Source: Eledone cirrhosa
Taxonomy: Eukaryota
Length of the DNA stretch: 64,000 nt
Direction of reading: 5' to 3'
Assembly: GCA_964016885.1 (NCBI GenBank)
Contig: OZ024760.1
Coordinates: 7,316,001-7,380,000 of the forward strand
Made by a program: the position numbers and the translations under genes. Below the pieces are notes generated by a model that saw only the letters and a program-made list of their open reading frames with translations, did no database searches and was not told where the DNA came from. Shown here piece by piece: positions 1-61,344 of the stretch (its first letter is position 1; each line of letters opens with the position of its first letter).

Positions 1-180
1 ATTAGTATGCATATAAATACACACATGTATACATATGTACATGTACTGAGTTTTTCACTGGACACTTTACTGTGAGTGTCCAGCTAGTCTGTATGTAACC
101 AAACAGACAAACCGGGTTTTAGAGTCATACGGGTTTTCAAGGAAACACATTTCCTCTATTCTCCAGAGAGCCAGACAGGA

Positions 181-223
181 ATATTGGACTAGTTTCGATG
201 TTATTACATCTCATCAGCAATAT
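181..223 (-). ncRNA. Minimal type I hammerhead ribozyme (inverted copy)
   Basis: Reverse complement of 1034-1076. Confidence 0.9.
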
Positions 224-1033
224 ATACCCATCTTCCGGCTTCTCTAGAGAATCGTAAAAGCACATATCGTTATATGCTTTTTCTATGAAAATTAGTAGTG
301 GGCAGACTAATTTGCATAGAACGTGAGTCATTGTACGCACCGGTTCAGCGGAAACGATAAAAACAAATAACGAAACGAAATTAAATTTCGTTTCGCTTCT
401 AACTCACTTTTGTATGACTGACACTTAAACAATTAAGTTAAAAGTGTACATCTACATATGTATACGGAAATATTAGTATGCATATAAATACACACATGTA
501 TACATATGTACATGTACTGAGTTTTTCCTGGACACTTTACTGTGAGTGTCCAGCTAGTCTGTATGTAACCAAACAGACAAACCGGGTTTTAGAGTCATAC
601 GGGTTTTCAAGGAAACACATTTCCTCTATTCTCCAATATGTTTCCTTGAAAACCCGTATGACTCTAAAACCCGGTTTGTCTGTTTGGTTACATACAGACT
701 AGCTGGACACTCACAGTAAAGTGTCCAGTGAAAAACTCAGTACATGTACATATGTATACATGTGTGTATTTATATGCATACTAATATTTCCGTATACATA
801 TGTAGATGTACACTTTTAACTTAATTGTTTAAGCGTCAGTCATACAAAAGTGAGTTAGAAGCGAAACGAAATTTAATTTCGTTTCGTTATTTGTTTTTAT
901 CGTTTCCGCTGAACCGGTGCGTACAATGACTCACGTTCTATGCAAATTAGTCTGCCCACTACTAATTTTCATAGAAAAAGCATCTAACGATATGTGCTTT
1001 TACGATTCTCTAGAGAAGCCGGAAGATGGGTAT

Positions 1034-1076
1034 ATATTGCTGATGAGATGTAATAACATCGAAACTAGTCCAATAT
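1034..1076 (+). ncRNA. Minimal type I hammerhead ribozyme
   Basis: atattg-CTGATGA-gatgt(aata)acatc-GAAA-ctag-TC^caatat. Perfect 6-bp stem I, 5-bp stem II, palindromic ACTAGT stem III, GUC cleavage after 1070. Confidence 0.9.
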
Positions 1077-1291
1077 TCCTGTCTGGCTCTCTGGAGAATA
1101 GAGGAAATGTGTTTCCTTGAAAACCCGTATGACTCTAAAACCCGGTTTGTCTGTTTGGTTACATACAGACTAGCTGGACACTCACAGTAAAGTGTCCAGT
1201 GAAAAACTCAGTACATGTACATATGTATACATGTGTGTATTTATATGCATACTAATATTTCCGTATACATATGTAGATGTACACTTTTAAC

Positions 1292-1384
<93 letters not shown>

Positions 1385-4498: not shown

Positions 4499-5687
4499 TA
4501 ACACCAACCACGTTTACAGTGTGGACTGGGAGGTTTTTACTGTGTTACCTACACAGCTACGTTACAGCGTGGACTGTGTGTTTTTTTGTTGTGACACCTA
4601 CACGACCTCATTTATTTTGGACTGGATGTTGTGGTACCAACATAACTTTACAGAGAAAGGATGGTGTTGGTGGGAGTGGGAGGGTGAGTAGGGGTAGTGG
4701 GATGGGGTGTATATTTGATTAAGAGGTGCCTACTGACTTTAGGTTTCGCTTTGTATATAGGCAAGGCAGGTCTTCTGTATTATATATATATATATGTATA
4801 TCTATATATATATATATATAAAGAAAAAGAGATGAAATCGAAAATGCAACTGGAGTCTTATTTTTTTTTAAAATATATTAAAAAATATATTAAAAATATA
4901 TTAAAAAATATATTAAAAATATATTAAAAATATATAAAAAAATATATTAAAAATATATATTTTTTAAAAAATAAGACTCCAGTTGCATTTTCGATTTCAT
5001 CTCTTTTTCTTTATACTTTCACTCGTGTAAGACACCTCGGTTATTTTTCATTTTGTAAAAAAAACCTCACTTTCTAATATATATATATATATATATAAAT
5101 ATTTACATATACACCAATTAAACAAAGTCACAGATATATATGTGTTTTGGCAACCATTCACGATGTGGCTCAATGAAGAATTAATAAATTAAATAATCTA
5201 TATATATGCATACACACATACATATACAAACACATACATACATATATATACTATAAAGTATATATATGTATGTATGTGTTTGTATATATGCTTTATAGTA
5301 TATATATATACTATAAAATAAAGCATGTCCATAGAATCATTTGATAATATATATACATCATGTAATTAAATGTATATATATTATCAAATGATTCTATGGA
5401 CATGCTTTACTTTATAGTATATATATATACTATAAAGCATATATACAAACACATACATACATATATATACTTTATAGTATATATATGTATGTATGTGTTT
5501 GTATATGTATGTGTGTATGCATATATATATATGTGTGTGTGTGTGTGTATATATGCTTGTGTCTGTATGTATATATATATGTGTGTGTGTGCGTGTGTTA
5601 AGTATTTCTGTAGAAAAGGTAAAGGTTAGAAGAGTGCTCTATATATAATACAGAGCTATTTAATTACATGATTAACAACACAATATA

Positions 5688-6005: not shown

Positions 6006-6730
6006 CTAAAGAGAGAGAATCAAGATGTGATATGTTTATGTTATACAGAACACATGGAAACGTGTGGCCTAGTGGTAAGGGTGTTGGACTTATGACCACA
6101 ACATTGTGGGTTCAATTCCTGGACTGGGTTCTGTGTTGTGTTCTTGAGCAAAACACTTCATTTCATATTTATTGTTCCAGTATACTCAACTGAAAATGAG
6201 TACCAGCAATAGCTGGGGGGTTTAACCCTTTAGCATTTAAACCGACTATATCCAGCCAGAACCCCCCCCCCCCCTTTCTGCTCAAACCTGTCATAACTGG
6301 CCACTAAAACTGATGTTAAGGTATTATTCTCAAAATAAATATCAAAATCTCATAAAATGTAATATTATGTGAGATAAAGTGTTTACAGTGAAAATACAAT
6401 AGTAGATATAGAGTAACGGGTTAATTAACTTTTCCCACAATTCGATGAGTTTGACGAGAAATAGAGAAAATATAAAATATGGTGGGGGGGGGGGGGTGAA
6501 CAATAAAACAACAAAAAGCTAGAAAAAAAGGTGAAGAAAGAATATGTTAATACACACACAAACACACATATATAACATATATATATATATGTAAATATAA
6601 TATAAATGGGTGACCCCATCCAATGCAACTACTTAGTAACATTGGAATACAAATTTACTAATTATATGTAAATATATATATATATTATTCAAAATATTAA
6701 TAAATGAAAAATATTCTCATAATTAAAATA

Positions 6731-6797
6731 TATATTTTATTATACATATTTCAAAGGTACAATGGTGTTTAAGTACGTTTTCATCAGACAAAATATA
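6731..6797 (-). ncRNA. Type I hammerhead ribozyme
   Basis: tatattttgt-CTGATGA-aaacgtac...gtaccttt-GAAA-tatgta-TA^ataaaatata, 10-bp stem I. Confidence 0.75.
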
Positions 6798-7019
6798 AGA
6801 TTTGATATGTGACATACCGCTATGGTTTTGATTATTCAATTCCAGTAATGGCAGTGATTTATTTCACCAAATCTCAACGTTTTTATGATATAAAAACGTT
6901 GAGAGTTGGTGAAATAAATCACCAAATGTTAAGACCCTCTTCCTGCTATATCAAGCGTTAACCTAATATATTCCTTCCATATACTGTACCGATTGTGTTG
7001 TTATTTCTGTTTACCTTTT

Positions 7020-7069
<50 letters not shown>

Positions 7070-7108
7070 GATATTAACAAATGGAAACTATATTTATAAA
7101 ACCATATT

Positions 7109-7173
7109 TATTTCATTATACATATTTCAAGGACACCAAGTTAAATTATGGTGTGCTTTCATCAGATAAAATA
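7109..7173 (-). ncRNA. Type I hammerhead ribozyme
   Basis: tattttat-CTGATGA-aagcacacca...tggtgtcctt-GAAA-tatgta-TA^atgaaata, 8-bp stem I, 9 of 10 pairs in stem II. Confidence 0.78.
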
Positions 7174-7462
7174 TAATATAGATCAGTTTTATAAATAAAT
7201 ATTGACATACCCTTAAAGAATGCAACCATTCCTGTTGGAAGCTCCCGGATAGTGGAGTTGTAGCTTTAATTATTTTATTAGTATTGGATATTTTTAAAAT
7301 AAGCCGTTGGGTTACGGAGAAAGAGAAAGATAGATATATATTTACATATTTATATATGTAAAAAGAATATAAAATAAGTGAGGGAGGGGGGGGGGGGGGA
7401 TAAAACAACAAAAAAAACAAAAAAAAAACTAGAAGAGAAGGCTAAGAAAAAATGTTTCTTAC

Positions 7463-7580
7463 CGAGAGGAATGGAAGCGATCTGTGTGTAGAGATCAAGA
7501 AGGCAGTTGCCATCAGCGTCAGTGATGTAGTTACCTTGACACTTGTCAAAGTCTGTGAAGAATACAATACTACCAGTATT
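7463..7580 (-). CDS. ABAT: ABAT coding exon 3
   Basis: TTACAG acceptor and G|GTAAG donor, 118 nt. NTGSIVFFTDFDKCQGNYITDADGNCLLDLYTQIASIPLG carries the class III aminotransferase 'GNY..D.DGN..LDLY.QI.S.P.G' motif. Confidence 0.95.
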
Positions 7581-13125: not shown

Positions 13126-13673
13126 CTGCAAATATAAATACAAACTGTTAAGGATTATTATTGGTAGAATTGGTGGAATTAGTAGAACATTGGACAACAT
13201 GCTTTGTAGCATAGTTACGGCCCTTTACAGTCTGAGTTCAAATCCACAAAGATTTCGTACTTATGGGGGTCCATAATCAACTTTACCCTCTCCTAAAATC
13301 ATTGGCCTTGTGCCTAAATCAGAAACCATTACTATTGATGAGGGCAGTGAAATAAAGTGTCTTGCTCAAGGACACAACACATCACCCAGTCCAAGAATTG
13401 AACTCACAACCACCCAATTGCAAGCCCAATGCTCTAACCATTAAATCATGTGCCTTCACTTATGTGTGTATATATATATATATATAACTAAAGAAATTTT
13501 AGTCTGATAGTGTAGTTTAAAACACTCTAAAACATGGAAAAGGATGGAAGGATGGATATTGACTTACATTATCCCCATGTACGTCAATACTCATCCTTTT
13601 CCCTTTTTTAGAGGGTTTTAAACCCCACTATCGGGCTAAATTTCAAACTTCGCTTCCAGTTTCAAAACAAACT

Positions 13674-14074: not shown

Positions 14075-14879
14075 GGGGGGGTGGCTGTAGGAAAATGGTC
14101 TAAGATATTATGAAATGTTGCTTTTTATTTTTATTTTTAACCTTTTCTTATCATATAGTGTGGATATTATACAACTTGACATGTGTCAAACCAATTATAT
14201 ATATCACTTCTTTTTCTCCTCTCAGCCAAATGTCAGATACTTTTTTTGAAGGACATCACATTGCAAATTTTTACAACATAAAGTATAAACCAACACTATG
14301 ACTACATCACATTAAATATTGAAGTCTTTACTCTAATACTACACATTTCCACAATCTTTCCCTTTAGTAAAGATACTATAAACATTAAACATTTGAAATA
14401 ACAAACCACATGAAACCACATTAACAAGACATTCTTCAAAAGTACATAATAACACTATGACTACATAACTTTAAAAAATAGTCTTTATTCCAGTTTACAG
14501 TAAATTTTCACAATGACCTATCTACCAGTAAAGATACTATAAAAATGGAGTAGTAACCAGAAATTGTTTTTTATATATTTATTTCCTTATTTTTATAATG
14601 GTTTTTTTTTTTACTCCCTTTCGATTTACCTATTCTTTCACTCCCCACCTCCTCCTCTTCTCCAGTACACTTTTCTGGACCTTTTATACACTAAACTTAG
14701 AATCTGCTGTATAGATTTCACTTTCAACACTTGACTGGGTTCCCCCCAATCCTTCTTTGTTCTACCGGCAGGTTCGGCCACCCCTATCTTCCACCAAATG
14801 CCATGATAGATTTATCTGTCTTTACAACAAATTTTTGACCATTCCTCTTGACATTTGCTATCTTCCCATATAAGGAAAT

Positions 14880-14975
14880 ACCCCCTAAGAAGTTCGGCTA
14901 TTTATTTACCAGGCTAAAAATTCTTATTTAGTCCAGAAATAGCCGTCGAAACGGCTTGAGCACTGCCGTCGGGGT
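14880..14975 (+). ncRNA. Type I hammerhead with a full stem III; core has a 1-nt deletion
   Basis: acccc-CT(G missing)AAGA-..cggctattt...aaatagccgtc-GAAA-cggc(ttgagcact)gccg-TC^ggggt. Confidence 0.6.
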
Positions 14976-15431
14976 CATACTTGTTCCTATTACCACTCTA
15001 CTACCCTAAGTATTGAGTACTTTGGTGCGTTATGGTCCATCTAGTTCTTTACCACAATTCCTTCGTTATATATATATATATATATATATATAGGGGGTGT
15101 AACTAGAAGTTACTGCAGGTTCACTTCTGTGATGAGGTGTAGAGCTATACAGAGTGTAATATATAGAAAGGATAAAAAGGATGATTGATTATTCCTTCAT
15201 TCCATTTATTGATAGGTGACGCGCGTTTCGCCACTGATCAGCTCAAGGTTCGATCCATTTCGATCCTACACGACTCAATAATCCGCAGCTCGACGGACCC
15301 TCTTAAAATGCTATAAGAATATATATATAAGTAGTTACACAACAGTTAGTTCACTGTGTAAACACTTCTTCCTAACTCGTCCCTTGGACAGAATGCTCTA
15401 CCACTACGGATATTACCTTCCAGTGTTCCAC

Positions 15432-15483
<52 letters not shown>

Positions 15484-15905: not shown

Positions 15906-16599
15906 TATACGTATATATCGGCTGGATCGGAGGATCTTAGCTAAATAAGGGGCGGGGGAAGTCTAGTTTTTTTTTTTTTCAAATATATTTTCATTTTATC
16001 ATTAATTTTTATTCTAAACCACTAAACCACAAACATTACGCACACACACACATATATACATTAATTAGTCTTTATCATTAAGATTAATATATAAAAAAAA
16101 TCAAAATAATGGTTTCTTATATAGGCACAAGGCCAGCAATTTTGGGGAGGGAGAAGTCGATTAAATCGATCCAGTGCATTACTGGTACTTTATTTTATCG
16201 ATCCCGGAAGGATGAAAGGCAAAGTTAACCTCGGCGGGATTTGATAAAAAAAAATCAAAATAATAATTATGTATAATTATTTAAAATTCAAATCCCGCCG
16301 AAGTTGACTTTGCCTTTCATCCTTACGAGGTCGATAAAATAAAGTACCAGTAATGCACTGGGTAATTGCTGGCCTTGTGCCTAAAGTAGAAACAATTATT
16401 TAAAACATTTTTTGCCCAATTTTTTTTTTTTTTTTAAGGGCAGGGTCCTCAAATTTCATACAGCTTAGAGGTCTCAACAGGTGAATGTCCAGCCCTGATT
16501 CTAGGGGACTAAACAACACAACCACCAACCCACCCAGCCAGCCACGCGTAATAAGGGAGGACAGGAAATTGTAATTAGTGAACGGAAGGAGGAAAGAAA

Positions 16600-20054: not shown

Positions 20055-20246
20055 TAACGAAGGAAATGTGGTAAGGAACTAGGTGGACCATAACGCACCA
20101 AAGTACTCAATACTTAGGGTAGTAGAGTGGGTAATAGGAACGAGTAGGACCCCGACGGCTGAGCTCAAGCCGTTTTCGACGGCTAATTCTGGTCCAGAAT
20201 TAGCCGTCGAAACGGCTTGAGCTCAGCCGTCGGGGTCCTACTCGTT

Positions 20247-20251
<5 letters not shown>
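20055..20251 (-). mobile_element. Short TA-embedded element with a fold-back end (family of 14880-15070 and 60464-60660)
   Basis: Palindrome at 20134-20251. Shared tail ...ttacccactctactaccctaagtattgagtactttggtgcgttatggtccac...ccttcgttata. Confidence 0.75.
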
Positions 20252-20345
<94 letters not shown>

Positions 20346-20360
20346 TTATCTATCTATCTA

Positions 20361-22490
20361 GGTTGGCGCTTGTCGTCGAGAACCTGGTAGGGAAAGCGCA
20401 AACGTGTGCAATCCCGACCAGGTCCATACACGACAACCTCCACCTCATGCGATACATCATAGAGAGGGTGGGTAGTAAACCTGGCTTCGGTGGGGCTCTG
20501 ATCAACTTGGATCAGTCTAAGGCATTCGATAGGGTCGACCGTCGATACTTGGAATCGGTTCTCAAGTAGGCCGGTTTCGGTCCCATGTTCAGAGGATGGA
20601 TCGAGGCGATGCACACCAGCATCTGCTCGAGGGTCAAGGTGAATGGCTACCTATCGGAGCCGTTCGCAATCACGCGTTCCATTCGACAGGGGTGCCCTCT
20701 CTCCTCCATTCTGTATGTATTGACTCTAGATCCACTACTGCGGAAATTGGAGCTGTTGCAGGGCATCCCTCTAGAACCGGGACTGCGCAAAGCGGCGTCG
20801 GCTTATGCCGATGACGTGAAGGTAATGGTGTCGAGCACCTCGGAAATCGGGGTGATCGGCAACTTACTGAAAGAATACGAAACGCTGACGGGAGCAAAAC
20901 TAAACTTGGACAAGTCTGTCGGTTTGCAACTCGGTACGTGGAGAGGCAAACCGATGACGTCTGACAGTGTCGTTGGACGCTGGACGGACGGACCGGTGAA
21001 ATTGCTCGGGGTCTGGTTTGGTCCAGACCTCCAGGTGGAGAAAAACTGGAACGAGGTCACGGCCAAGGTGTTTGCACTCACCCAGAAGTGGGCAGAGTGC
21101 AAACTGTCCTTGAAAGGTCGAGCAGAGGTGGCGAACACTTTCATAGCGTCCGTCATCTACTACCGCTTGACTGTCATGCCTTGTCCCCGTGAACACCTCG
21201 CCAAGATGGAACGCATGCTCTTCCAGTTTCTGTGGAAGAAGCAGGCTCCGCAGGTGAGGAGATCCGTCTGCTGTCAGCACCCTTCCAATGGAGGGCTGGG
21301 AATGCCGTGGCTGATGATGCGCAAACATGCGCTGAGGCTGCAGCATCTCCAGGTATTCCTCACCGACCCCCAACCGGTGTGGGCACCGTTTGTGAGACAG
21401 ACTTTCCCACAGCTCGTCTCACTGACGGAGTTGCAGTCCTGGGTGAAGAAAAGGCCGAAAACGATGGGCGCCTGGCACATTGAATGCGCTCAGGCGCTCA
21501 CAGTCCTCTGGCAAGCGGGCGCAGCAATCAGTGGAGACTCCACTTCGACATTCTATAGAGGGATTGTACGTTACAAGGGCAACGACGTGCTCGGAGAGAC
21601 TCTGGGCGTCAAAGACGATGAGCACACCAGTCTGTTTGGTAGGACTTTCCGCCTGGGACCTATGGACAACTTCCAGAGGTCCGTGGCCTGGCAGTGCTAC
21701 CGAGGAGCTCTACCGGTTTGTGACAAGATCTACAGGCACGGACGCCCCGGCAGGGATCCTTCCAAGAGAACGTGTCCAAGATACGCACAGGACATTGAAA
21801 CAGTCCTGCACGCAATTGTACACTGCCCGGGCGTAACCGACCTGTGGAACTATGCAGAACAACTGCTGTCGCATATGGGACAAATCCAGTTGACTGCCGA
21901 GTCCATAGTAAGGATCAAACCGCCAGCCTCTTTCAAAAACGAAAGAGAGGCGGTTTTCCTCTGTACGGTGGCTATGGTGAAAGAAGTTATATGGTGGACG
22001 AGGTTGAGAGGACTGAGGACAGATGCCTTTCTCTCCGGACAACAATTGATTTGCTTCTTTAAGTATCACTTTAGAAGGAGAATCAGGGTGGAGAGAGAGG
22101 CACTGCACCCCAGTAAATTTACTGAAAGGTGGGTGAATGAAGCGAAAATGGCCCGAGTGATTGGGCCTTCTCTGTTTATAAGCCTGTAGGTTCAGGAAGA
22201 GAGCAAAAGGAAGAAAGGAGCACTTGCACAACACGCTCCTGGAGTTGAGGGTTGTTCTATCTACGGGGTATTATACAACCCATTTGTGGCGCCTCCCCCC
22301 TATTGGGGATTTCGATTGTTGAAATTGTCTGTTTTTATATTTTTTACACGACTGTATGTAAAATCCCCGGCATGTCTTTGTATTGTCCCCTTTTCTTGTG
22401 CGCCCTTGTGGCTAATAAAGAAATATATCTATATGTCCTGTATTGTCCTCTTTTCTTGTGCGCCCTTGTGGCAAATAAAGAAATATATCT
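20361..22490 (+). mobile_element. 5'-truncated L1/Tx1-type LINE, ORF2 with one in-frame stop
   Basis: Motifs [32 protein letters not shown] and a decayed zinc knuckle CPRY...ETVLHAIVHC. ORFs 20336-20569 and 20585-22189 share a frame, separated by TAG. The 3' tail with AATAAA is duplicated. Confidence 0.9.
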
Positions 22491-26902: not shown

Positions 26903-27113
26903 TTGTGTTTATGTATAATAAGCGTACATAAGTCTTGCTATATATATATATATAGAGAGAGAGAGAGGTAGAACACTGGAAGGTAATATCCGTAGTGGTA
27001 GAACACTCAGTCCATGGGACGAGTTAGGTAGAAGTGGTAACACAACAGTTAGTTCACCATACCATGGTGAACTAACTGTTGTGTTACCACTTCTATATAT
27101 ATATACATATATA

Positions 27114-28370: not shown

Positions 28371-28404
<34 letters not shown>

Positions 28405-28568
28405 GTAGAAGTTATATTTAATTTGTTGGGATACAACAAGCAAATATTTTTATAACTGATATAAAGCACTCAACAAATTTTTGGAGTAAAAATACAATAT
28501 ATTAACAAATGGAAACTATATTTATAAAACCATATTTATTTCATTATACATAAAACTGATCTATATTA

Positions 28569-28633
28569 TATTTTATCTGATGAAAGCGCACCATAATTTG
28601 CCTTGGTGTCCTTGAAATATGTATAATGAAATA
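28569..28633 (+). ncRNA. Type I hammerhead ribozyme, family of 7109-7173
   Basis: tattttat-CTGATGA-aagcgcacca...tggtgtcctt-GAAA-tatgta-TA^atgaaata. Confidence 0.78.
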
Positions 28634-28664
28634 AATATGGTTTTATAAATATAGTTTCCATTTG

Positions 28665-28725
<61 letters not shown>

Positions 28726-29120
28726 AATACAATATCGGAGAAAGCTTTTTAGCGATACTCCAGCCAAATTCCAACTCACTCAACATTAGGAAATAAGTGA
28801 TTATATTCCCAATTATGTGTTCGGGGTGCTAACTAAAAGTATTGCGTGGAAAATTGGCTGTATTATTTCAAATGAGACATATTTATCAAGTAAGTATGTT
28901 TTGAAACAGAGAGCAGGTTTGAAATTAGAAAATATATAGCTTTCACCGTATTTTTGACTAAAGGAATTTTAGCCTGATAATGGGGTTTAGAACCCTCAGA
29001 TAAATGGAAAAAGATGAGTATTGACTCCCATGTACATCATGCTCATCTTTTTCCATTTATCTGAGGGTTCTAAACCCCATTATCAGGCTAAAATTCCTTT
29101 AGTCAAAAATACGGTGAAAG

Positions 29121-29163
<43 letters not shown>

Positions 29164-43545: not shown

Positions 43546-45016
43546 ATATATATATAAGACTGCGTCTTCCTTCCACTGGGATATTTCTTGGCACTTCTTT
43601 ACCCAGCGGTCATCCTCCATGCGCACCACATGTCCATACCAACGCAGTCTTCTCTCCCCCGCACACTACAGACAAGGACAGAAGAGGTGGTGTAATGGCA
43701 GAGTTGTTAGAACATCAGACAAAATACTTTGTAGTATTTGTTCCAGTTCTCGCTTCTCTTCTCTCGCAGTTCAACACCTGCCAAGGTCAACACTTTGCCT
43801 TTCATCCTTTCAAGGTTGATAAAATTAAAAAAATATAAAGCAGCAGTCAAAGGTGAAGAATTGGCAGTCTCGTTAGAATGTCGGATAGAATACTTTGATG
43901 GTTATTAGTTCCAGCTCTCTGTGCTTTCCGAGTTCAAATCCTGCCAAGGTCAACTTTGCCGTTCATCCTTTTAAGGCCGATGAAAAAAAAAAGTACCAGT
44001 TCAGTTCTGAGGGTAGGGTGGGGTGGGGGGGAGGTGATTTTTCTTCTCTCTGTCTTGGACATTTCAAACCCGGTAGAGCCCACCCCTTCTCTATGCTGGA
44101 ACGCAGCCGTTTTTTTTCCAGAAAAGAAGAGATAGAGAGTAAAAGAAAGGAAGTGAGAAATCACTTCCTTTCTTTTACTCTCTATCTCTTCTTTTCTGGA
44201 AAAACAACGGCTGCGTTCCAGCATAGAGAAGGGGTGGGCTCTACCGGGTTTGAAATGTCCAAGACATGGTGTATATGATGGCAGCACCCCTACAATTCCT
44301 CCAGGAGTCACGAGTTCATATAGACATATCTTCTTTATGCCCCACAGGTCAGTACCCACATAGTCCTCTCTCTCTCACTATCTCTCCCTCTCCTTTCCCC
44401 TCACTCTCTCTTTCCCCCTTTCTCCTCCTCACTCTTTCTCCCTCCCACCCCATCTCTCTCTCTCTCTCTCTCTCCCCATCACATCCTAGATGTTATGCTG
44501 GATCAAAGGAGAGGCAGTCAGGAAAGAATCTGTCTCCACACATAAACCCAGCTTTTCTCTCAGTCCTCTTGTATTCCGATGTTCATACACCACACACTAA
44601 CATTGCCCATCCGGTGGAGCAATGTTTGCCCCATTTATTTCCACCATGACAGTCAACCCTCAGCAGATAAACCCTATGTTTTCCACCTGCCATACAGTAT
44701 CACACTACGTAGACAAACAATGCAATTCAAAGATGTTTATTGGTCAAAGATTCTTAAACAATTTTCACAGTTGCTGGGATTTAATCCACATATAATAATT
44801 ATCTATGGTTTTTTTTATTTGCTGTTGTACAAACAGAGAAAGAGAGTGAGTGGTAGTAGGAGGATAAAAATGCAAGGGGGTGAGACTGGTGGAATAAAAT
44901 TGAGAGTGAATTGGCGATCAGCCGGAGCAGTCAAGCTTACACAATTAAGAGTAGTGATAAAGTTACAAGATCTATGAGAGTTGATCAAGTGAAGTCTAGA
45001 CAATAGTTAGTATTAG

Positions 45017-49235: not shown

Positions 49236-49275
49236 GAGAAAGACACAACACAGACGGACCCGTGTCATCTCTTAC

Positions 49276-49510
49276 CTAATGTCTTCACCATCAGGATGAC
49301 CCTGTCTCTGTACCTCTTATAGTGGCACAATGGGTTGTTGTTCAGCTCCAGTGTCACCAACTGTTTCATGTATAACACAGCGTTGGCAATGTCACTGAAG
49401 TCGGAGAGGTTGTTGAGGCCCGCATAGAGGGAGGTCAACTGATGGAGGGGCTGAAGTTCCTTCAGGCTGGTCAGTCTGTTTTTGGAGAGGTTTAGTACTT
49501 GTAGACTGTC
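49276..49510 (-). CDS. PPP1R42: PPP1R42 exon 4 (LRRs + LRRcap)
   Basis: CCACAG acceptor and G|GTAAG donor, 235 nt. DSLQVLNLSKNRLTSLKEL...LELNNNPLCHYKRYRDRVILMVKTL. Confidence 0.92.
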
Positions 49511-49811
49511 CTGTGGATAGAGATGGGAGATATAGGGTGGTGGTGGTGGTGGTGGTGGTGGTGGTGGTGGTGGTAGAAGGTGATAGTGGTTGTGATGGTG
49601 GTGGAGATGGTGGGTGGTGGTGGTGGTAACCCTGCAATGGACTGGCGTCCTGTCCAGGGGGAAGTCTTCTACTCTCAGTCACTTCACACCACAGAAACTG
49701 GGGTAAGCATCGGCCTGATGGGCCTCTGGGCTCGAGACAGACTTTAGACTATTTTTTAGAAGGGTTGCATGATTTGACATATGAAAATAAAATTAAACCT
49801 GGATTACTCAC

Positions 49812-51224: not shown

Positions 51225-51516
51225 ATGTATGTATATACATATGCATATATGTGTATATATATGGTTTTGCGAGGTTTTTTATATGAAATCGTGTGTCGAA
51301 ACAGATATTGTTATATTTGGGGAGGGTCATATTTGCGTAATATTGCCAGAATTAATAACAGAACACACTCACTGTTTGGTTGGTTTTCGCTTCTCGCTGT
51401 CTTTTATATATATATATCTGCGATCTAACTTACTCGGTCCTCAATGTTGCCATTGACTGACCGGCGGTCAAAAATAATACAGATACAATATAGACAAACA
51501 CATATATATATAGTTT

Positions 51517-51556
51517 ACATAAATCTTTCGTTGCACATCTGCAACATCGTCAGTGG
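51517..51556 (-). ncRNA. Hammerhead-like motif in the PLE 3' UTR (sense strand)
   Basis: cca-CTGACGA-t-gttgca(gatg)tgcaac-GAAA-gatt-TA^tg. Perfect stem II, but only about 2 bp of stem I. Confidence 0.55.
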
Positions 51557-51825
51557 TGTTATATTCATTGTTCCTCCTGTTGTGTTGTATGTCTACGCCA
51601 TTTTTTTTGTTCAGTCTGTCTATATATTTATTTATTTATTTGCTTGTTTGTTTATCTTATTTTATTTTGTCTTCTTTGCGCATGCGTTTGCGTGTGTGTA
51701 TAGTGTTATGTGTGATGTGTGACTAGTGTGTATAGTGTTGTGTCTGCTGGGTGACTAGTGTGTGTTTATGTGCTTGTGTATGTATTTATTTATCTTATTT
51801 TATTTAATTTAATTTACTTATTTAT

Positions 51826-54186
51826 TTATACTTCTCTTAGGTCAGTGTTGTTTGTTTGGGTGTTGTTGTTGTTCCACTCATTCTTTCTGTTTAGCTGTGG
51901 TCTTCTAATTTCTATTTCACTGGCCTCTCTGATTTGCCTATCTGCTGGGTCATTCCTATGTTTAGATATTATTCTAATTTCTATGTTGTCTATGTTACCG
52001 TCATGATGTTGTCTAGCATGTTCGTATAGTACTGACCCGTTTTTTCGTCCTTTTAGTTCCCCCCAGTGTTGGTCTATCCTTTCACCTATGCTACGAGCTG
52101 TCTCACCTATGTATGTTGTTGTCGTGTTTCTGCAAGTACCCTCTGTACATCTTATGCTATAGACTACGTTTCTAGTTTTACAGTTTATCCGGGGGTTCAC
52201 CTTACATATGATACATTTCCTATTGGTACAGTGGGTTTTCTTAAAAGGGTAGGTTTTGCTGATCAGGGATTTTATGGTGGTTCCTGGCTTTTCTACCACC
52301 TTTATTTTTAAGTGGGTCTTTCTCAGGGCCTTTCTACACTGGTTAGCTAATTTCCCTCCAGGGGTGGCGTCCACAAACATGACACTCTGATATCTCTGGT
52401 TGTCGTACCATGATGTGGCCTTCCCTATCTTATGTCTAGCCCTATCTAAGCTATTCCATGATTTGCTCCTGTATAGTGGGCAAATTCCTTTCATGTCCAG
52501 TTCTATGAGGGTCTTATACTTTTCCATGGCTCCTTCGTATACTCTGACTCTGTCTCTTTGGTTGTAGCCAGAGAACTGCATGCGGTTGATGAAGTGTTGG
52601 ATGTGTCCTTCCATTTCTGTTGGGTCGCACATGCTGGACACATTCTTCATCACTCGTACCAAATCTGCGATCAGAATATTAAACTTAGCACTACTGGACA
52701 TTGCTGAGTTTTTGAGTATCAGGTATTTGGAGGCCATGGGTTTAGCATAGTGTGAGTGGAGAATTTGGGCTCTCTCGTCTATAGTGTTAATCCAGAGTTC
52801 TGTGTCTAATACAGGTAGTCTATTGTTAGGGTGTTTGGAAGGGAAGTCTATAGTTACAGTTATACTCTGGTGTATGGAATTAGCTATCTGCTGGATGCTT
52901 TCCATCGTGCTACGTTCTAAATCAAACTTGTTAGTGCTCTCTAGTGGGGGTGTTCTTATAACTATATTGATATCGTCTACATAACGAGAGTACATGATGA
53001 GGTCTATGGAGCTTTCATTAAGGAGATCTTTAAGTCTCCTTTCCCACCATACCATGAAAAGGTTGGCAACATCGCCAGCTATGCTGACGCCGATGGCTGC
53101 TCCCTCATTTTGGGTGTAGATTTTCTCATTGAACTTAAATATGTGGCCCTTTAGGGTAGTTTTGATACTAGCCCCTATTGCATGTGCGACCATTTTTCTT
53201 ACCTGATCAGTGTTTTGGGGGGTCCGTATAGCTTTGGTCCACCCAATCCACCTTCCTATGGGAGTCTTTTTAGCCATTGAGGTTATGGTGGGGGGTCTAC
53301 CTCTTATAGGTCTACTAGGGCAGAAACATCTAAGGTCATGGCTGTCTAGGTAGTCAGTGTCGTAGGTAAGTCTAAGTAGGAGGCCCAGTTCGTCTGTGTC
53401 GACGTCGCAGAACTCCACCTCACTCTCAATGATCATCTCCACACATCTTTTCACAGCAAAATCAATGTTAATGGATGGGTACAGTGACACCACATCCATG
53501 CTGCCTATTATGCAGTTGGATAGGCTCCTGTTTTTGTTGCACTCACTGATTCTGCTGAGGAGGTCCTCTGTACTTTCACATACATCTGGGGACATCTTGA
53601 TTATGGGGCGTATAACCATTGAGAGGAAGTAGGAGATCCTGTAGTTGCTAGCTATATTAGCTCCGCATACAGGTCTTGTTGGTGGTCCTATTGTCGGGTC
53701 GTCGACTGTCTTGTGGTCTTTGCGGAGCCCATACAAGGGTGGTATGCCATTGTTAGACGCCTGGAAGTTGTTGGCAGTGCGTCTGCTTGGCTTTAGGATG
53801 TCAGTCCACATCATCATGTGAGCGTTGAGGATTTTTTCTCTCCCATCGTGTGTTAGTTGTGCAACTTCGCTCGTGTTGGTGATGTGGGGTTGCATTGCCT
53901 CGATGTAGTTCGGCATGCTATCTATTGACATCCTACCAGACTTATCTGTGGGTAGACACACTACCTCACCATCCCTTGTGCGCTGCTTGAGGCTAACCAA
54001 GCCTTCTACAGGTTTTATCCCAAGTTGTTGGGCCTCTGGTCTGCTCTGTCTCATAGTGTACCTGTCTACTACTTGTCTAATCTTATTTCTAGCTATGGTG
54101 AACTGTGCCTCCGTCTCGTCATCTATTTGTTGTGGTATGCAAACTCTTTTATTAAAGGGTAACCTCGTAGGATAGATATTACCCAT
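51826..54186 (-). CDS. PLE polyprotein: reverse transcriptase + GIY-YIG endonuclease
   Basis: Motifs TDKSG, LYGLRKDHK, RPV, MDVVSLYPSI, QNEGAAIG, RYVDD, LPVLD, Cys linker CTNRKCIIC, VVYSIRC...YIGETAR and REASEI...PQLN. The frame stays open about 125 codons upstream (Asn-rich) to ~54565. Confidence 0.95.
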   Translation of the reverse strand: MGNIYPTRLPFNKRVCIPQQIDDETEAQFTIARNKIRQVVDRYTMRQSRPEAQQLGIKPVEGLVSLKQRTRDGEVVCLPTDKSGRMSIDSMPNYIEAMQPHITNTSEVAQLTHDGREKILNAHMMMWTDILKPSRRTANNFQASNNGIPPLYGLRKDHKTVDDPTIGPPTRPVCGANIASNYRISYFLSMVIRPIIKMSPDVCESTEDLLSRISECNKNRSLSNCIIGSMDVVSLYPSINIDFAVKRCVEMIIESEVEFCDVDTDELGLLLRLTYDTDYLDSHDLRCFCPSRPIRGRPPTITSMAKKTPIGRWIGWTKAIRTPQNTDQVRKMVAHAIGASIKTTLKGHIFKFNEKIYTQNEGAAIGVSIAGDVANLFMVWWERRLKDLLNESSIDLIMYSRYVDDINIVIRTPPLESTNKFDLERSTMESIQQIANSIHQSITVTIDFPSKHPNNRLPVLDTELWINTIDERAQILHSHYAKPMASKYLILKNSAMSSSAKFNILIADLVRVMKNVSSMCDPTEMEGHIQHFINRMQFSGYNQRDRVRVYEGAMEKYKTLIELDMKGICPLYRSKSWNSLDRARHKIGKATSWYDNQRYQSVMFVDATPGGKLANQCRKALRKTHLKIKVVEKPGTTIKSLISKTYPFKKTHCTNRKCIICKVNPRINCKTRNVVYSIRCTEGTCRNTTTTYIGETARSIGERIDQHWGELKGRKNGSVLYEHARQHHDGNIDNIEIRIISKHRNDPADRQIREASEIEIRRPQLNRKNEWNNNNTQTNNTDLREV

Positions 54187-54722
54187 CTTATATGTTTTGT
54201 CAGCTGGGTTGAAAAATAGTTTCTCTAAGGGGTTGTCGTTATTTCTATCGTCATAGTTGTGTGTGTTGCTATTATTGTTATCATGGTGGTTGTTGTTGTT
54301 TCTATCCTTAGCATTAATATTATTATTGTTATGATTGCTAGATGTATTGTTGTTTACTTCACCGTTATTGTTGTTGTTACTGCTATTTCTACCATTGTGG
54401 TTGTTACTATTATTATGTTTCTTGTTTTTGTTGATGTTGCTACATGTACTATTTCCATTATTACCACTGTGGTTATTGTTGTTGTTGTTGTTCGTATTGT
54501 TACCGTTATTACTACTGTGGTCACTGTTGCTGTGTCTGTGGTTAACGTTTCTATTATTATTATTATAACGTTTCTATTATTATTATAACGTTTCTATTAT
54601 ATATATATAAAAGACAGCGAGAAGCGAAAACCAACCAAACAGTGAGTGTGTTCTGTTATTAATTCTGGCAATATTACGCAAATATGACCCTCCCCAAATA
54701 TAACAATGTATATATATGTATA

Positions 54723-54807
54723 TATATATATTTTGTCTGAGGAGAACATGTTTTGCTTTATGTTATACATAAAACATCTTTGAAATATATATAATGAAAT
54801 ATATATA
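54723..54807 (+). ncRNA. Type I hammerhead ribozyme
   Basis: tatatattttgt-CTGAGGA-...atgtttt...aaaacat..-GAAA-tatata-TA^atgaaatatata, with palindromic ATATATAT stem III. Confidence 0.65.
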
Positions 54808-54970
54808 ATGAAATAAATAGAGATGATATATATTATATATCTTTTGTTTATTACTATTATATATAAATATATATAGATATACATAAATATGTGTGTGTGT
54901 GTGTATAAAAATAAATAAATAAAATAAAAATGGCATAGACATTACAATACAATGGGAGGAAACATAAGTG

Positions 54971-55009
54971 CCACTGATGATATCACAGATGTGTGACGAA
55001 AGAACTTTG
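54971..55009 (+). ncRNA. Hammerhead-like motif, same architecture as 51517-51556
   Basis: cca-CTGATGA-t-atcaca(gatg)tgtgac-GAAA-gaac-TT^tg. Stem II differs in sequence but still pairs. Confidence 0.5.
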
Positions 55010-59144: not shown

Positions 59145-59776
59145 GTAATAATAATAAATTTGAAGACTAAAATCCAAAGGATAAATATATTTCAAATATA
59201 TAAGAACCGTATATATATGCAGAAGTTATATTTAATTTGTTGGAATTCAACAAGCTTAAAAGTTTTATAAGTATATATATATATACACACACAAGCAGAC
59301 GCACATACACACACGAACGCATGCATACTTATATATACACATGAGCACACACACACACACACACAGAGCATATTAACAGGTGTTGAACAAAATTCAATAT
59401 TTATTCAGTGAGAAAAATATTGTTACTTTGACACTATCAAAGGTTATCGATGTATAAAATAAATGAATAAATAAATATATAGCTTATTTGCTGTAAGTTG
59501 CTGTTTGGTCTCGTCTCTTACTCTTAGGACAGCGTTTGGCTTGTACCAGACACTGTGATTCCGGGTGGACCAGCTGTACCTTTGGTAAGGGTCGAAACTG
59601 CCAAAGTCCATCACAACGCCTGATGACCCTGGAGTTCCGTGTCTTTCGTTTGTATTTTTGTTTTAAAAAAATAATCTTTTAACGTTTCCCCTTAAAAAGA
59701 TGTTTTTCGTTTTGCCTTGCTTTCGTTCGTTGTCTTGTCCTCTCTTTGTTAATTTTCCTAAGTTTATATATAACAT

Positions 59777-59844: not shown

Positions 59845-60144
59845 TAGTTATATATTGTGTTGTTCACTTTCTAATTATATATATATATATATAAACTAAT
59901 ATATATATTATATATATTAGTTTATACACGGCTCAGAAATATTTCCTTCTTCGAGCTAATTCCATTGTAAAAGAATTCATTACACTTAATAACATATATA
60001 TATAGTTATGTAATAAACAACATAATGTTGTTTATTACATAAATTGTTTAAACAACATATGTTGTTTATTACATAACTATTAAGCTCTGTTACCTACATA
60101 GAGCACTCTTTTTTCCTGGACTTTTCCGACGGAATTACTTCATT

Positions 60145-60176
<32 letters not shown>

Positions 60177-60219
60177 AATTTTTAAGCTTATTGAATCCCA
60201 ACAAATTAAATATAACTTC

Positions 60220-60262
<43 letters not shown>

Positions 60263-60463: not shown

Positions 60464-60467
<4 letters not shown>

Positions 60468-60655
60468 GAACCAGTAAGACCCCGACGGCTGAGCTCAAGC
60501 CGTTTCGACGGCTAATTCTAGACAGAATTAGCCGTCGAAACGGCTTGAGCTCAGCCGTCGGGGTCTTACTGGTTCCTATTACCCACTCTACTACCCCAAG
60601 TATTGAGTACTTTGGTGTGTTATGGTCCACCTGGTTCCTTACCACATTTCCTTCG

Positions 60656-60660
<5 letters not shown>
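60464..60660 (+). mobile_element. Short TA-embedded element with a fold-back end
   Basis: Palindrome at 60464-60579 followed by the same tail as 20055-20251. Confidence 0.75.
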
Positions 60661-60929: not shown

Positions 60930-60974
60930 GTATATATATAGATATATAGATATATATATGTATATATATACAAA

Positions 60975-61320
60975 AGTTCTATTTAAAATTGTTGGGATAC
61001 AACAAGTAAATATTTTTATAACTGATATAAAGCACTCGACAAGTATTTGGAGTAGATATACGATATTAATAAATGGAAACTATATTTATAAAACCATATT
61101 TATTTCATTATACATATCTTAGGGATACCAAATTAAATTATGGTATGCCTTCATCAGACAAAATACAATATATAACAGTTTTACAAATAAGTTTTGATGT
61201 ACCCTTTTAAAGTGCAACCATTATTTTTGGAAGCCATCTGGATAGTGAATTGGTATCCCTGAAATATGTATAATGAAATAAATATGGTTTTATAAATATA
61301 GTTTCCATTTATTAATATCG
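60975..61320 (-). mobile_element. TA-embedded non-autonomous element (family of 7070-7290 and 28405-28670) with a decayed hammerhead and inverted end
   Basis: CTGATGA and stems at 61101-61165, with GAAA mutated. 61250-61320 is an inverted copy of the 3' half. Confidence 0.6.
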
Positions 61321-61344
61321 TATATGTATATATATATATACATG

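Follow-up and report, generated by a model that had tools for sequence, protein, structure and literature searches.

Palindromic copies of a hammerhead-derived repeat in TA microsatellites, possibly formed by two cDNAs joined inside the ribozyme

Two insertions in the window (the whole stretch of DNA that was analysed, 64 kb) carry the 3' half of a hammerhead ribozyme twice, head to head, with the junction inside the ribozyme and a tail on one arm only. They are read here as insertions, in TA microsatellites, of a very abundant short hammerhead-derived family, formed by two cDNAs of one RNA and mobilised by a Penelope-like (PLE) enzyme; this reading seems to us evenly poised between right and wrong. 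Its observed basis is the architecture of the copies, the fixed outer ends at 14990 and 15066, the 76-nt tail, the mirrored letters of the arms, a centre that falls at 14931-14935 and a 5' half that is seldom present. Three copies of this family (family A) were found within the window by BLAST and nhmmer: copy A (14880-15066, + strand) and the palindromic copies B and C (Table 1). Positions within the repeat follow the numbering of copy A.

Table 1. Positions of family A and of the inverted loci compared with it
Feature	Position	Strand	Description
Copy A, type I hammerhead fold with degenerate core	14880-14975	+	Fold prediction; no Rfam match
Parts of copy A	stem I 14880-84/14971-75; core 14885-92; stem II 14895-14945; GAAA 14948-51; stem III 14951-55/14965-69; GUC 14968-70
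Repeated stretch preceding the ribozyme, probably belonging to the body of A's element	14677-14879	+	Read depth; 5' boundary not fixed
Local inverted repeat, 5 bp, centred 14933; candidate annealing seed	14925-14941	+	One of 14 inverted repeats of at least 5 bp in A, weak alone
Segment doubled in inverted form in B and C	14931-14990 (A numbering)	+	Short arm has its fixed end at 14990
Tail of the long arm only	14991-15066 (A numbering)	+	76 nt in C, then (TA)n; alignment of A, B and C
Copy B	20057-20251	-	Tail 20057-20133, tailed arm 20134-20192, untailed arm 20194-20251 (+); (TA)n on either side
Copy C	60464-60656	+	Untailed arm 60464-60519 (-), 4-nt spacer, tailed arm 60524-60579, tail to 60656; (TA)n on either side
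Hammerhead family G locus	28400-28673		Tailed arm begins just after GAAA; untailed arm has 65 further 5' nt including the whole ribozyme
Family G locus	60965-61325		Untailed arm begins at 3' edge of stem II loop; tailed arm reaches about 90 nt upstream of core
Family H locus	15322-15440		Relative at 26955-27097; untailed arm has 13 extra 5' nt
Full-length Neptune-like PLE	51262-54707	-	915-codon stop-to-stop frame 51826-54573; hammerhead core 51553; inverted 5' piece 54598-54707; 44-nt tail
Inverted partial tandems, 471-bp period	1-1297		Complete hammerheads 1021-1093 (+) and 164-236 (-); junction near 635

Sequence and read data

The window is eukaryotic, with the look of an octopus-type genome, and is rich in (TA)n, LINE pieces and PLE pieces; short fold-back pieces occur every few kb across it. 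Two WGS-like contig sets from one sample (X2, X3) and two RAD runs from another study (X5, X6), out of seven runs listed (X1 to X7), were used. Raw reads matched to 14150-15070, a stretch that includes other repeats too, numbered 24451 of 12467656 and 24873 of 12785554. Summed contig depth does not equal copy number. The RAD runs were apparently cut at AATT, as judged from molecule ends at 14833, 14926 and 15059. This site flanks the centre on both sides, so that centre-spanning RAD reads are hidden and the RAD depth step is inflated, whereas the contig step is unaffected.

Base-by-base reading of palindromic copies refers to B and C (n = 2), both within the window. Inverted loci were counted when a hammerhead could be placed in them, and those at 4.8, 5.2, 6.85, 13.5, 15.3, 16.2, 27, 28.9, 44 and 60.0 kb were omitted as having no recognisable ribozyme. 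The sole hit of a pattern scan of metagenomes was rejected as chance: it matched 23-24 nt on a GC-rich, bacterial-looking contig.

Architecture of the palindromic copies

Alignment to copy A confirmed that 20134-20251 and 60464-60579 each hold the 3' half of the hammerhead twice, in inverted form and without the CUGANGA half, as the original prediction had stated. The 5' core of the hammerhead and the 5' strand of stem I are absent from both copies. The arms of copy C are complementary at 56 of 56 positions. Those of copy B are complementary except for one 1-nt indel, and its tailed arm has one extra A at GAAA. When arm is compared with arm, each copy shows 0 substitutions in 55 columns (B plus the indel), whereas the arms of B and C differ from one another by 2 substitutions in 55. 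These lie at 14977 and 14982, where the two arms of any one copy agree; copy A has a third letter, unlike B or C, at both positions. The chance of such mirrored letters is about 7e-5 if the arms evolved independently. The mirroring of copy-specific substitutions, noticed earlier, is borne out, and the derivation of both arms of each copy from one template is supported.

The outer ends, which the original prediction had overlooked, are common to B and C: one arm ends at 14990 and passes into (TA)n, and the other continues for 76 nt, to 15066. Over 195 nt the identity of the two copies is 95%; their ends coincide and their centres are almost alike. The cleavage site is retained uncut in the arms of both. 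An inverted 5'-truncated copy at the 5' end and a tail on one inverted end, as found in B and C, are PLE traits, as are the hammerhead in a terminal repeat and the (TA)n target of family A. No direct pLTR was found at A, B or C, and no 3'-to-5' go-back joint occurs among the 15 of 118 joints listed. Tandem retrozyme monomers with a complete type I hammerhead were not found: all three copies in the window are non-tandem. The PLE-type origin proposed earlier for the inverted copies is supported. Family A behaves like a PLE insertion, its membership being incomplete without a linked ORF.

Hammerhead fold of copy A

Copy A is predicted to fold into three stems around the core, with stem I open, and the MFE and centroid structures agree. 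The z score of this fold is -1.86, and equally good folds were obtained in 10 of 200 shuffles. Stem II has a lower stem of 9 bp, with 33 nt between its strands, and an upper 7-bp helix at 14912-14933; its axis is at 14920. GAAA and the NUH cleavage triplet, GUC, are present. The core is CUAAGAAG, with A at 14887 and 14890 (G5 and G8), where CUGANGA requires G. A at these two hammerhead positions is an inactivating change. The claim of a whole hammerhead in this copy therefore holds for the three-stem fold and fails for the core. Among reads of relatives, G at 14887 accounts for 36773 of 37204 of the contig depth in X2, 365 of 474 reads in X5 and 333 of 406 reads in X6; position 14890 falls outside the 40 of 401 rows listed. 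This suggests that family A once had a proper core and that copy A is a decayed copy. In an Rfam search of the whole window, no hammerhead at A, B or C was present among the 150 of 193 matches listed, and the microRNA matches were generic hairpins; a search with copy A alone gave no hammerhead and 4 weak unrelated matches.

Six-frame translation and tblastn gave no ORF upstream of copy A. No ORF with RT and GIY-YIG was linked to the family A ends, and there was no DNA match to the Neptune-like PLE of the window; an autonomous partner was not found and could lie elsewhere. A short pyrimidine/AC-rich motif occurs twice, at 14983-14997 and 15045-15056, at a distance of 60 nt. Both fixed ends of family A lie 2-4 nt after TTCCT, which could position the RT starts. 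In addition, an ATG some 12 codons short of the 3' end is reminiscent of pLTRs containing an ORF start.

Abundance of the half-ribozyme form

Family A is very abundant in the reads, with the 5' half (14863-93) at 2.1-4.9% of the arm depth. The depth rises 12-16-fold at 14925 in the two contig sets and the two RAD runs. At arm depth, about 30% of reads enter (AT)n behind 14990 (3713 of 12252 in X5 and 3504 of 12287 in X6), as do 120 and 111 contigs. Loose ends before 14926 and 14940 comprise 620-994 reads with an agreement of about 0.4; in many copies the 5' side is ill-defined.

Of the 15 joints listed (of 118), 6 connect opposite strands; in every one of these, one side lies at 14930-14942 (in five at 14930-33) and the other at 14993-15000. 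Taken literally, they may represent an inverted arm joined directly to the tail, a simple twin-priming product. The literal reading is uncertain, and the joints may instead be the tool's way of reporting palindromes. Under either reading they put the centres at 14930-33. Each listed joint is supported by 1-5 read starts, and a joint linking 14931 to 14933 is absent from the 15 of 118 listed. The random scatter of inversion centres against which the original prediction was set is not seen: B, C and the listed read joints cluster at 14930-14942. T>A at 14925 was found in 276 of 459 reads (X5) and 261 of 360 (X6). Together with the AATT of B and C, this change would give a 6-bp inverted repeat centred on 14932.5.

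Other inverted loci in the window

Two of the six hammerhead-family inverted loci, namely B and C, which belong to one family, have stem II as the end of both arms. A single arm ends there at 61 kb, and none at the remaining three (28.5 kb, 1-1297 and the Neptune-like PLE). Centring near stem II in 2 of 6 loci means that there is no general rule, and the idea of a general route to the inverted ends of PLEs is not upheld, 4 of the 6 loci being centred elsewhere.

At 28.4-28.7 kb, the tail of about 96 nt is on the arm opposite the 65 extra nt. If a tailed cDNA folded back, the spacer would run on without a break from the tailed arm, and a tail could not be templated by an untailed cDNA; this means that the loci at 28.4-28.7 kb and 15.32-15.44 kb need two primed cDNAs. 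Furthermore, at one position the two 28 kb arms agree with each other and with neither 61 kb arm, so that mirroring, seen here at an asymmetric locus, does not require snap-back. The 61 kb and Neptune-like loci fit either model, two cDNAs or snap-back. Family G pieces lie in (TA)n at 6694-6801, 7060-7262, 28400-28673, 54777-54841, 59210-59277, 60155-60231 and 60965-61325. This family has a short end that is likewise fixed and peculiar to it, and its tail measures about 96-105 nt. The pieces at 59.2 and 60.2 kb consist of tail alone and flank 900 bp in inverted orientation.

In the Neptune-like PLE, which has no DNA similarity to family A, the junction is more than 100 nt downstream of the ribozyme. 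Judged from its sequence, this element is apparently intact and possibly active. Its N-terminus is Asn-rich, its RT match is weak (Pfam E 2.5e-4, under the cut-off) and its inverted 5' piece is 100% identical; by eye, a CxxxxCxxC linker and a GIY-YIG-like end are seen. A second hammerhead at 54974 (+) is 72% similar to that of this PLE.

At 1-1297 the junction falls downstream of the cleavage-site equivalent, by about 22 nt in one arm and 37 nt in the other. This pair is young (99%) and retrozyme-like, each arm having a complete minimal hammerhead (Rfam HH9, 32.9 bits). Its arm starts look as if the template had self-cleaved.

Several further pieces were observed. Short inverted insertions without a recognisable ribozyme lie at 4817-5015, 5199-5529, 6854-6922, 16171-16361, 27029-27095, 44051-44266 and 60002-60080. 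A fold-back family at 28932-29128 and 13486-13650 has two copies about 74% alike with nearly the same centre; a link of family A to it was not accepted, the match to the upper stem II helix of A being 36 nt at 81% (E 0.085). A fragment at 15093-15320 (-) lies tail-to-tail with A across a TA run and has a minimal hammerhead-like motif near 15215-15245, with the core off consensus. A separate degenerate repeat at 14274-14550, with a period of about 160 nt, is very deep in the reads, and its go-back joints indicate tandem arrays elsewhere. An L1/Tx1-like LINE RT fragment (20360-22189, +; Pfam RVT_1 E 6e-10) begins just past the TA run of B. The segments at about 7430-7560 (-), resembling 4-aminobutyrate aminotransferase, and at 49265-49678 (-), with a leucine-rich repeat, are probably host exons.

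Possible formation of the palindromes

The centres of B and C correspond to 14932 and 14932.5 of copy A, 12 nt 3' of the stem II axis. The favoured route to this geometry is as follows. A PLE protein acting in trans would nick both strands of (TA)n, and the two cut ends would prime on the same RNA at the fixed sites 15066 and 14990. Both cDNAs would pass the uncut cleavage site and halt at 14931-14935, either at the foot of the upper helix of stem II or where the RNA has its 5' end. They would then be joined head to head with a 0-1 nt overlap or via the short inverted repeat centred near 14933. Among 10 letters at the centre, the untailed arm matches A better than the tailed arm (9 against 8 in B and 8 against 6 in C), which weakly favours two cDNAs. 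On the whole, the window favours two cDNAs.

A palindromic copy, once transcribed, would give a hairpin RNA yielding two new cDNAs complementary just past the loop; the centre would be inherited and the arms rebuilt at each insertion. If so, B and C need not be independent witnesses of the centre position, and the dominance of the half-ribozyme form would be explained. Family A might then be a self-perpetuating palindromic PLE parasite of about 195 bp, with the catalytic half of the ribozyme lost; its hairpin RNA would allow annealing of two target-primed cDNAs at the former stem II, and each insertion would rebuild both arms from one RNA arm. This extension is tentative, and we lean against it. 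If it is true, the parasite would be a natural high-copy record in which inverted ends and tails of PLEs come from twin target-primed reverse transcription with a stop defined by RNA structure.

Joining of two cDNAs has to be weighed against fold-back of one. A single tailed cDNA might fold back, self-prime on the short repeat near 14933 or on the loop of a palindromic master RNA, copy itself and jump to (TA)n at the first TAT (14990). The near-symmetric junctions with 1-4 nt spacers and the mirrored substitutions agree with this, as does the 5-bp inverted repeat at 14925-14941 in A, which with the 14925 change would presumably become the 6-bp repeat described above. The triplet at 14988-14990 is the first TAT met in copying outward from the centre, where a snap-back strand could jump to the target. 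Moreover, self-priming at junction palindromes has already been proposed in PMC3846280. However, in B as in C it is the untailed arm whose centre agrees with the parent, and neighbouring families show the geometries described above that are impossible by snap-back. The tails of PLEs are tied to two RT starts in vitro, according to PMC11167929, and one folded-back cDNA does not easily explain why the short arm always ends at 14990. This route is thought unlikely, if still to be taken seriously.

Alternatively, the palindrome might have arisen once or a few times and been copied as a unit, its arms being homogenised in DNA by quasi-palindrome template switching or gene conversion. The near-identity of B and C over their whole length, down to ends and centres, would fit copying as a unit, and a 5' half at 2-5% of the arm depth is what a self-standing family would show. 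The unrepaired 1-nt difference between the arms of B speaks against homogenisation. So do older inverted pairs with visibly diverged arms (74% at 13.5 kb and 85% at 60.0 kb), which indicate that it is inefficient here, and the substitutions mirrored at asymmetric loci too. This alternative is judged improbable.

In the original prediction, the cDNA passes the whole of stem II, snaps back on this hairpin and self-primes, which would be a route to the inverted ends of PLEs. In its favour, the stem II domain does contain the centres, a stem II fold is predicted for the cDNA of 14895-14990 (-15.5 kcal/mol) and one family G arm also begins at the edge of the stem II loop. The centring is nevertheless on the 3' side of the domain, not on its axis: snap-back on stem II would leave a 33-nt loop about an axis at 14920, whereas the spacers found are 1-4 nt. 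Beside the centre, the paired bases complement the loop at its 3' edge and do not represent the 5' strand of A. In addition, the majority of the hammerhead-family inverted loci, as counted above, are centred elsewhere. Relatives 10-13% diverged from A cross the long stem II loop with 0 gaps (X2 record 7 and X3 record 16), and the raw-read depth is level from 14863 to 14924 (586 and 609 in X5, 508 and 477 in X6). The long loop therefore looks typical of intact copies, within the joints (15 of 118) and indel rows (12 of 54) listed. Snap-back on stem II itself is contradicted for A-like parents and survives only if the parents of B and C had a short-loop stem II; such a parent subfamily may have existed. 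We consider this route quite doubtful.

Fold-back chimeras are a known sequencing artefact and few centre-spanning joints are listed, but the indel between the B arms, the one architecture common to both copies with (TA)n on either side, and the thousands of short reads from another study with the 14990-(AT)n end make an assembly or sequencing artefact highly improbable.

Comparison with known systems

According to PMC8557442, PLEs insert into (TA)n, carry tails of 30-40 bp and include 5'-truncated copies in inverted orientation; how the inverted repeats form is called unresolved there. Inverted pLTRs and short extensions are treated as standard PLE traits in PMC8969392, and PLE hammerheads are described in PMC4209133. 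PMC11167929 reports that a PLE protein cuts and extends both target strands in vitro, with the steps after initiation left open, and that its RT starts at two adjacent internal RNA sites bounding the genomic tail, ribozyme cleavage being unnecessary. Palindromes at inverted PLE junctions have been read since 2013 as self-priming, on an antisense template (PMC3846280). Hammerheads and palindromes are unmentioned in the passages of PMC13282606 that were covered. In the literature covered, which left most subscription papers and Repbase outside, no junction fixed inside a hammerhead or in stem II was found.

Family A resembles the endonuclease-bearing PLEs (Penelope/Poseidon, Neptune and Naiad; PMC8557442, PMC3846280, PMC11167929) in the head-to-head pair, the tail on one arm and the (TA)n target of B and C, and in the type I hammerhead near the 3' end and the palindrome at the junction. 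It differs from them in having no ORF and only about 195 bp, in a tail of 76 nt against the 30-40 nt reported for PLEs, in the junction fixed inside the ribozyme and in the loss of the catalytic 5' half from most copies. With the non-LTR (animal) retrozymes, non-autonomous PLE derivatives (PMC7229834; bioRxiv 10.64898/2026.07.22.740005), family A shares its short, non-coding nature, the type I hammerhead, the high copy number and the presumed mobilisation by PLEs. Retrozymes are defined as tandem in these texts, whereas copies A, B and C occur singly or in inverted form, and none of the three is predicted to self-cleave as it is.

Like MITEs and fold-back DNA transposons, family A is short, palindromic and high-copy, and lies in TA sites. 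Unlike them, it has a one-sided tail, a ribozyme origin and 5'-extended relatives, which point to reverse transcription and not to terminal inverted repeats. The 5' inversions of L1 reportedly arise by twin priming, as Ostertag and Kazazian are said to have proposed. The likeness to family A lies in two target ends priming on one RNA, internal priming at a short target match and an inverted 5' segment. L1 inversions are said normally to have no duplicated inverted segment and no fixed internal start, whereas B and C carry the segment on both arms.

The inverted architecture and the idea of self-priming are thus already known, and the junction fixed inside the ribozyme is what remains of value. 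How PLEs build their tandem and inverted structures is an unresolved question according to PMC8557442. Many short head-to-head copies with fixed tails, from several families, bear on it: which arm owns the spacer separates self-priming from the joining of two cDNAs.
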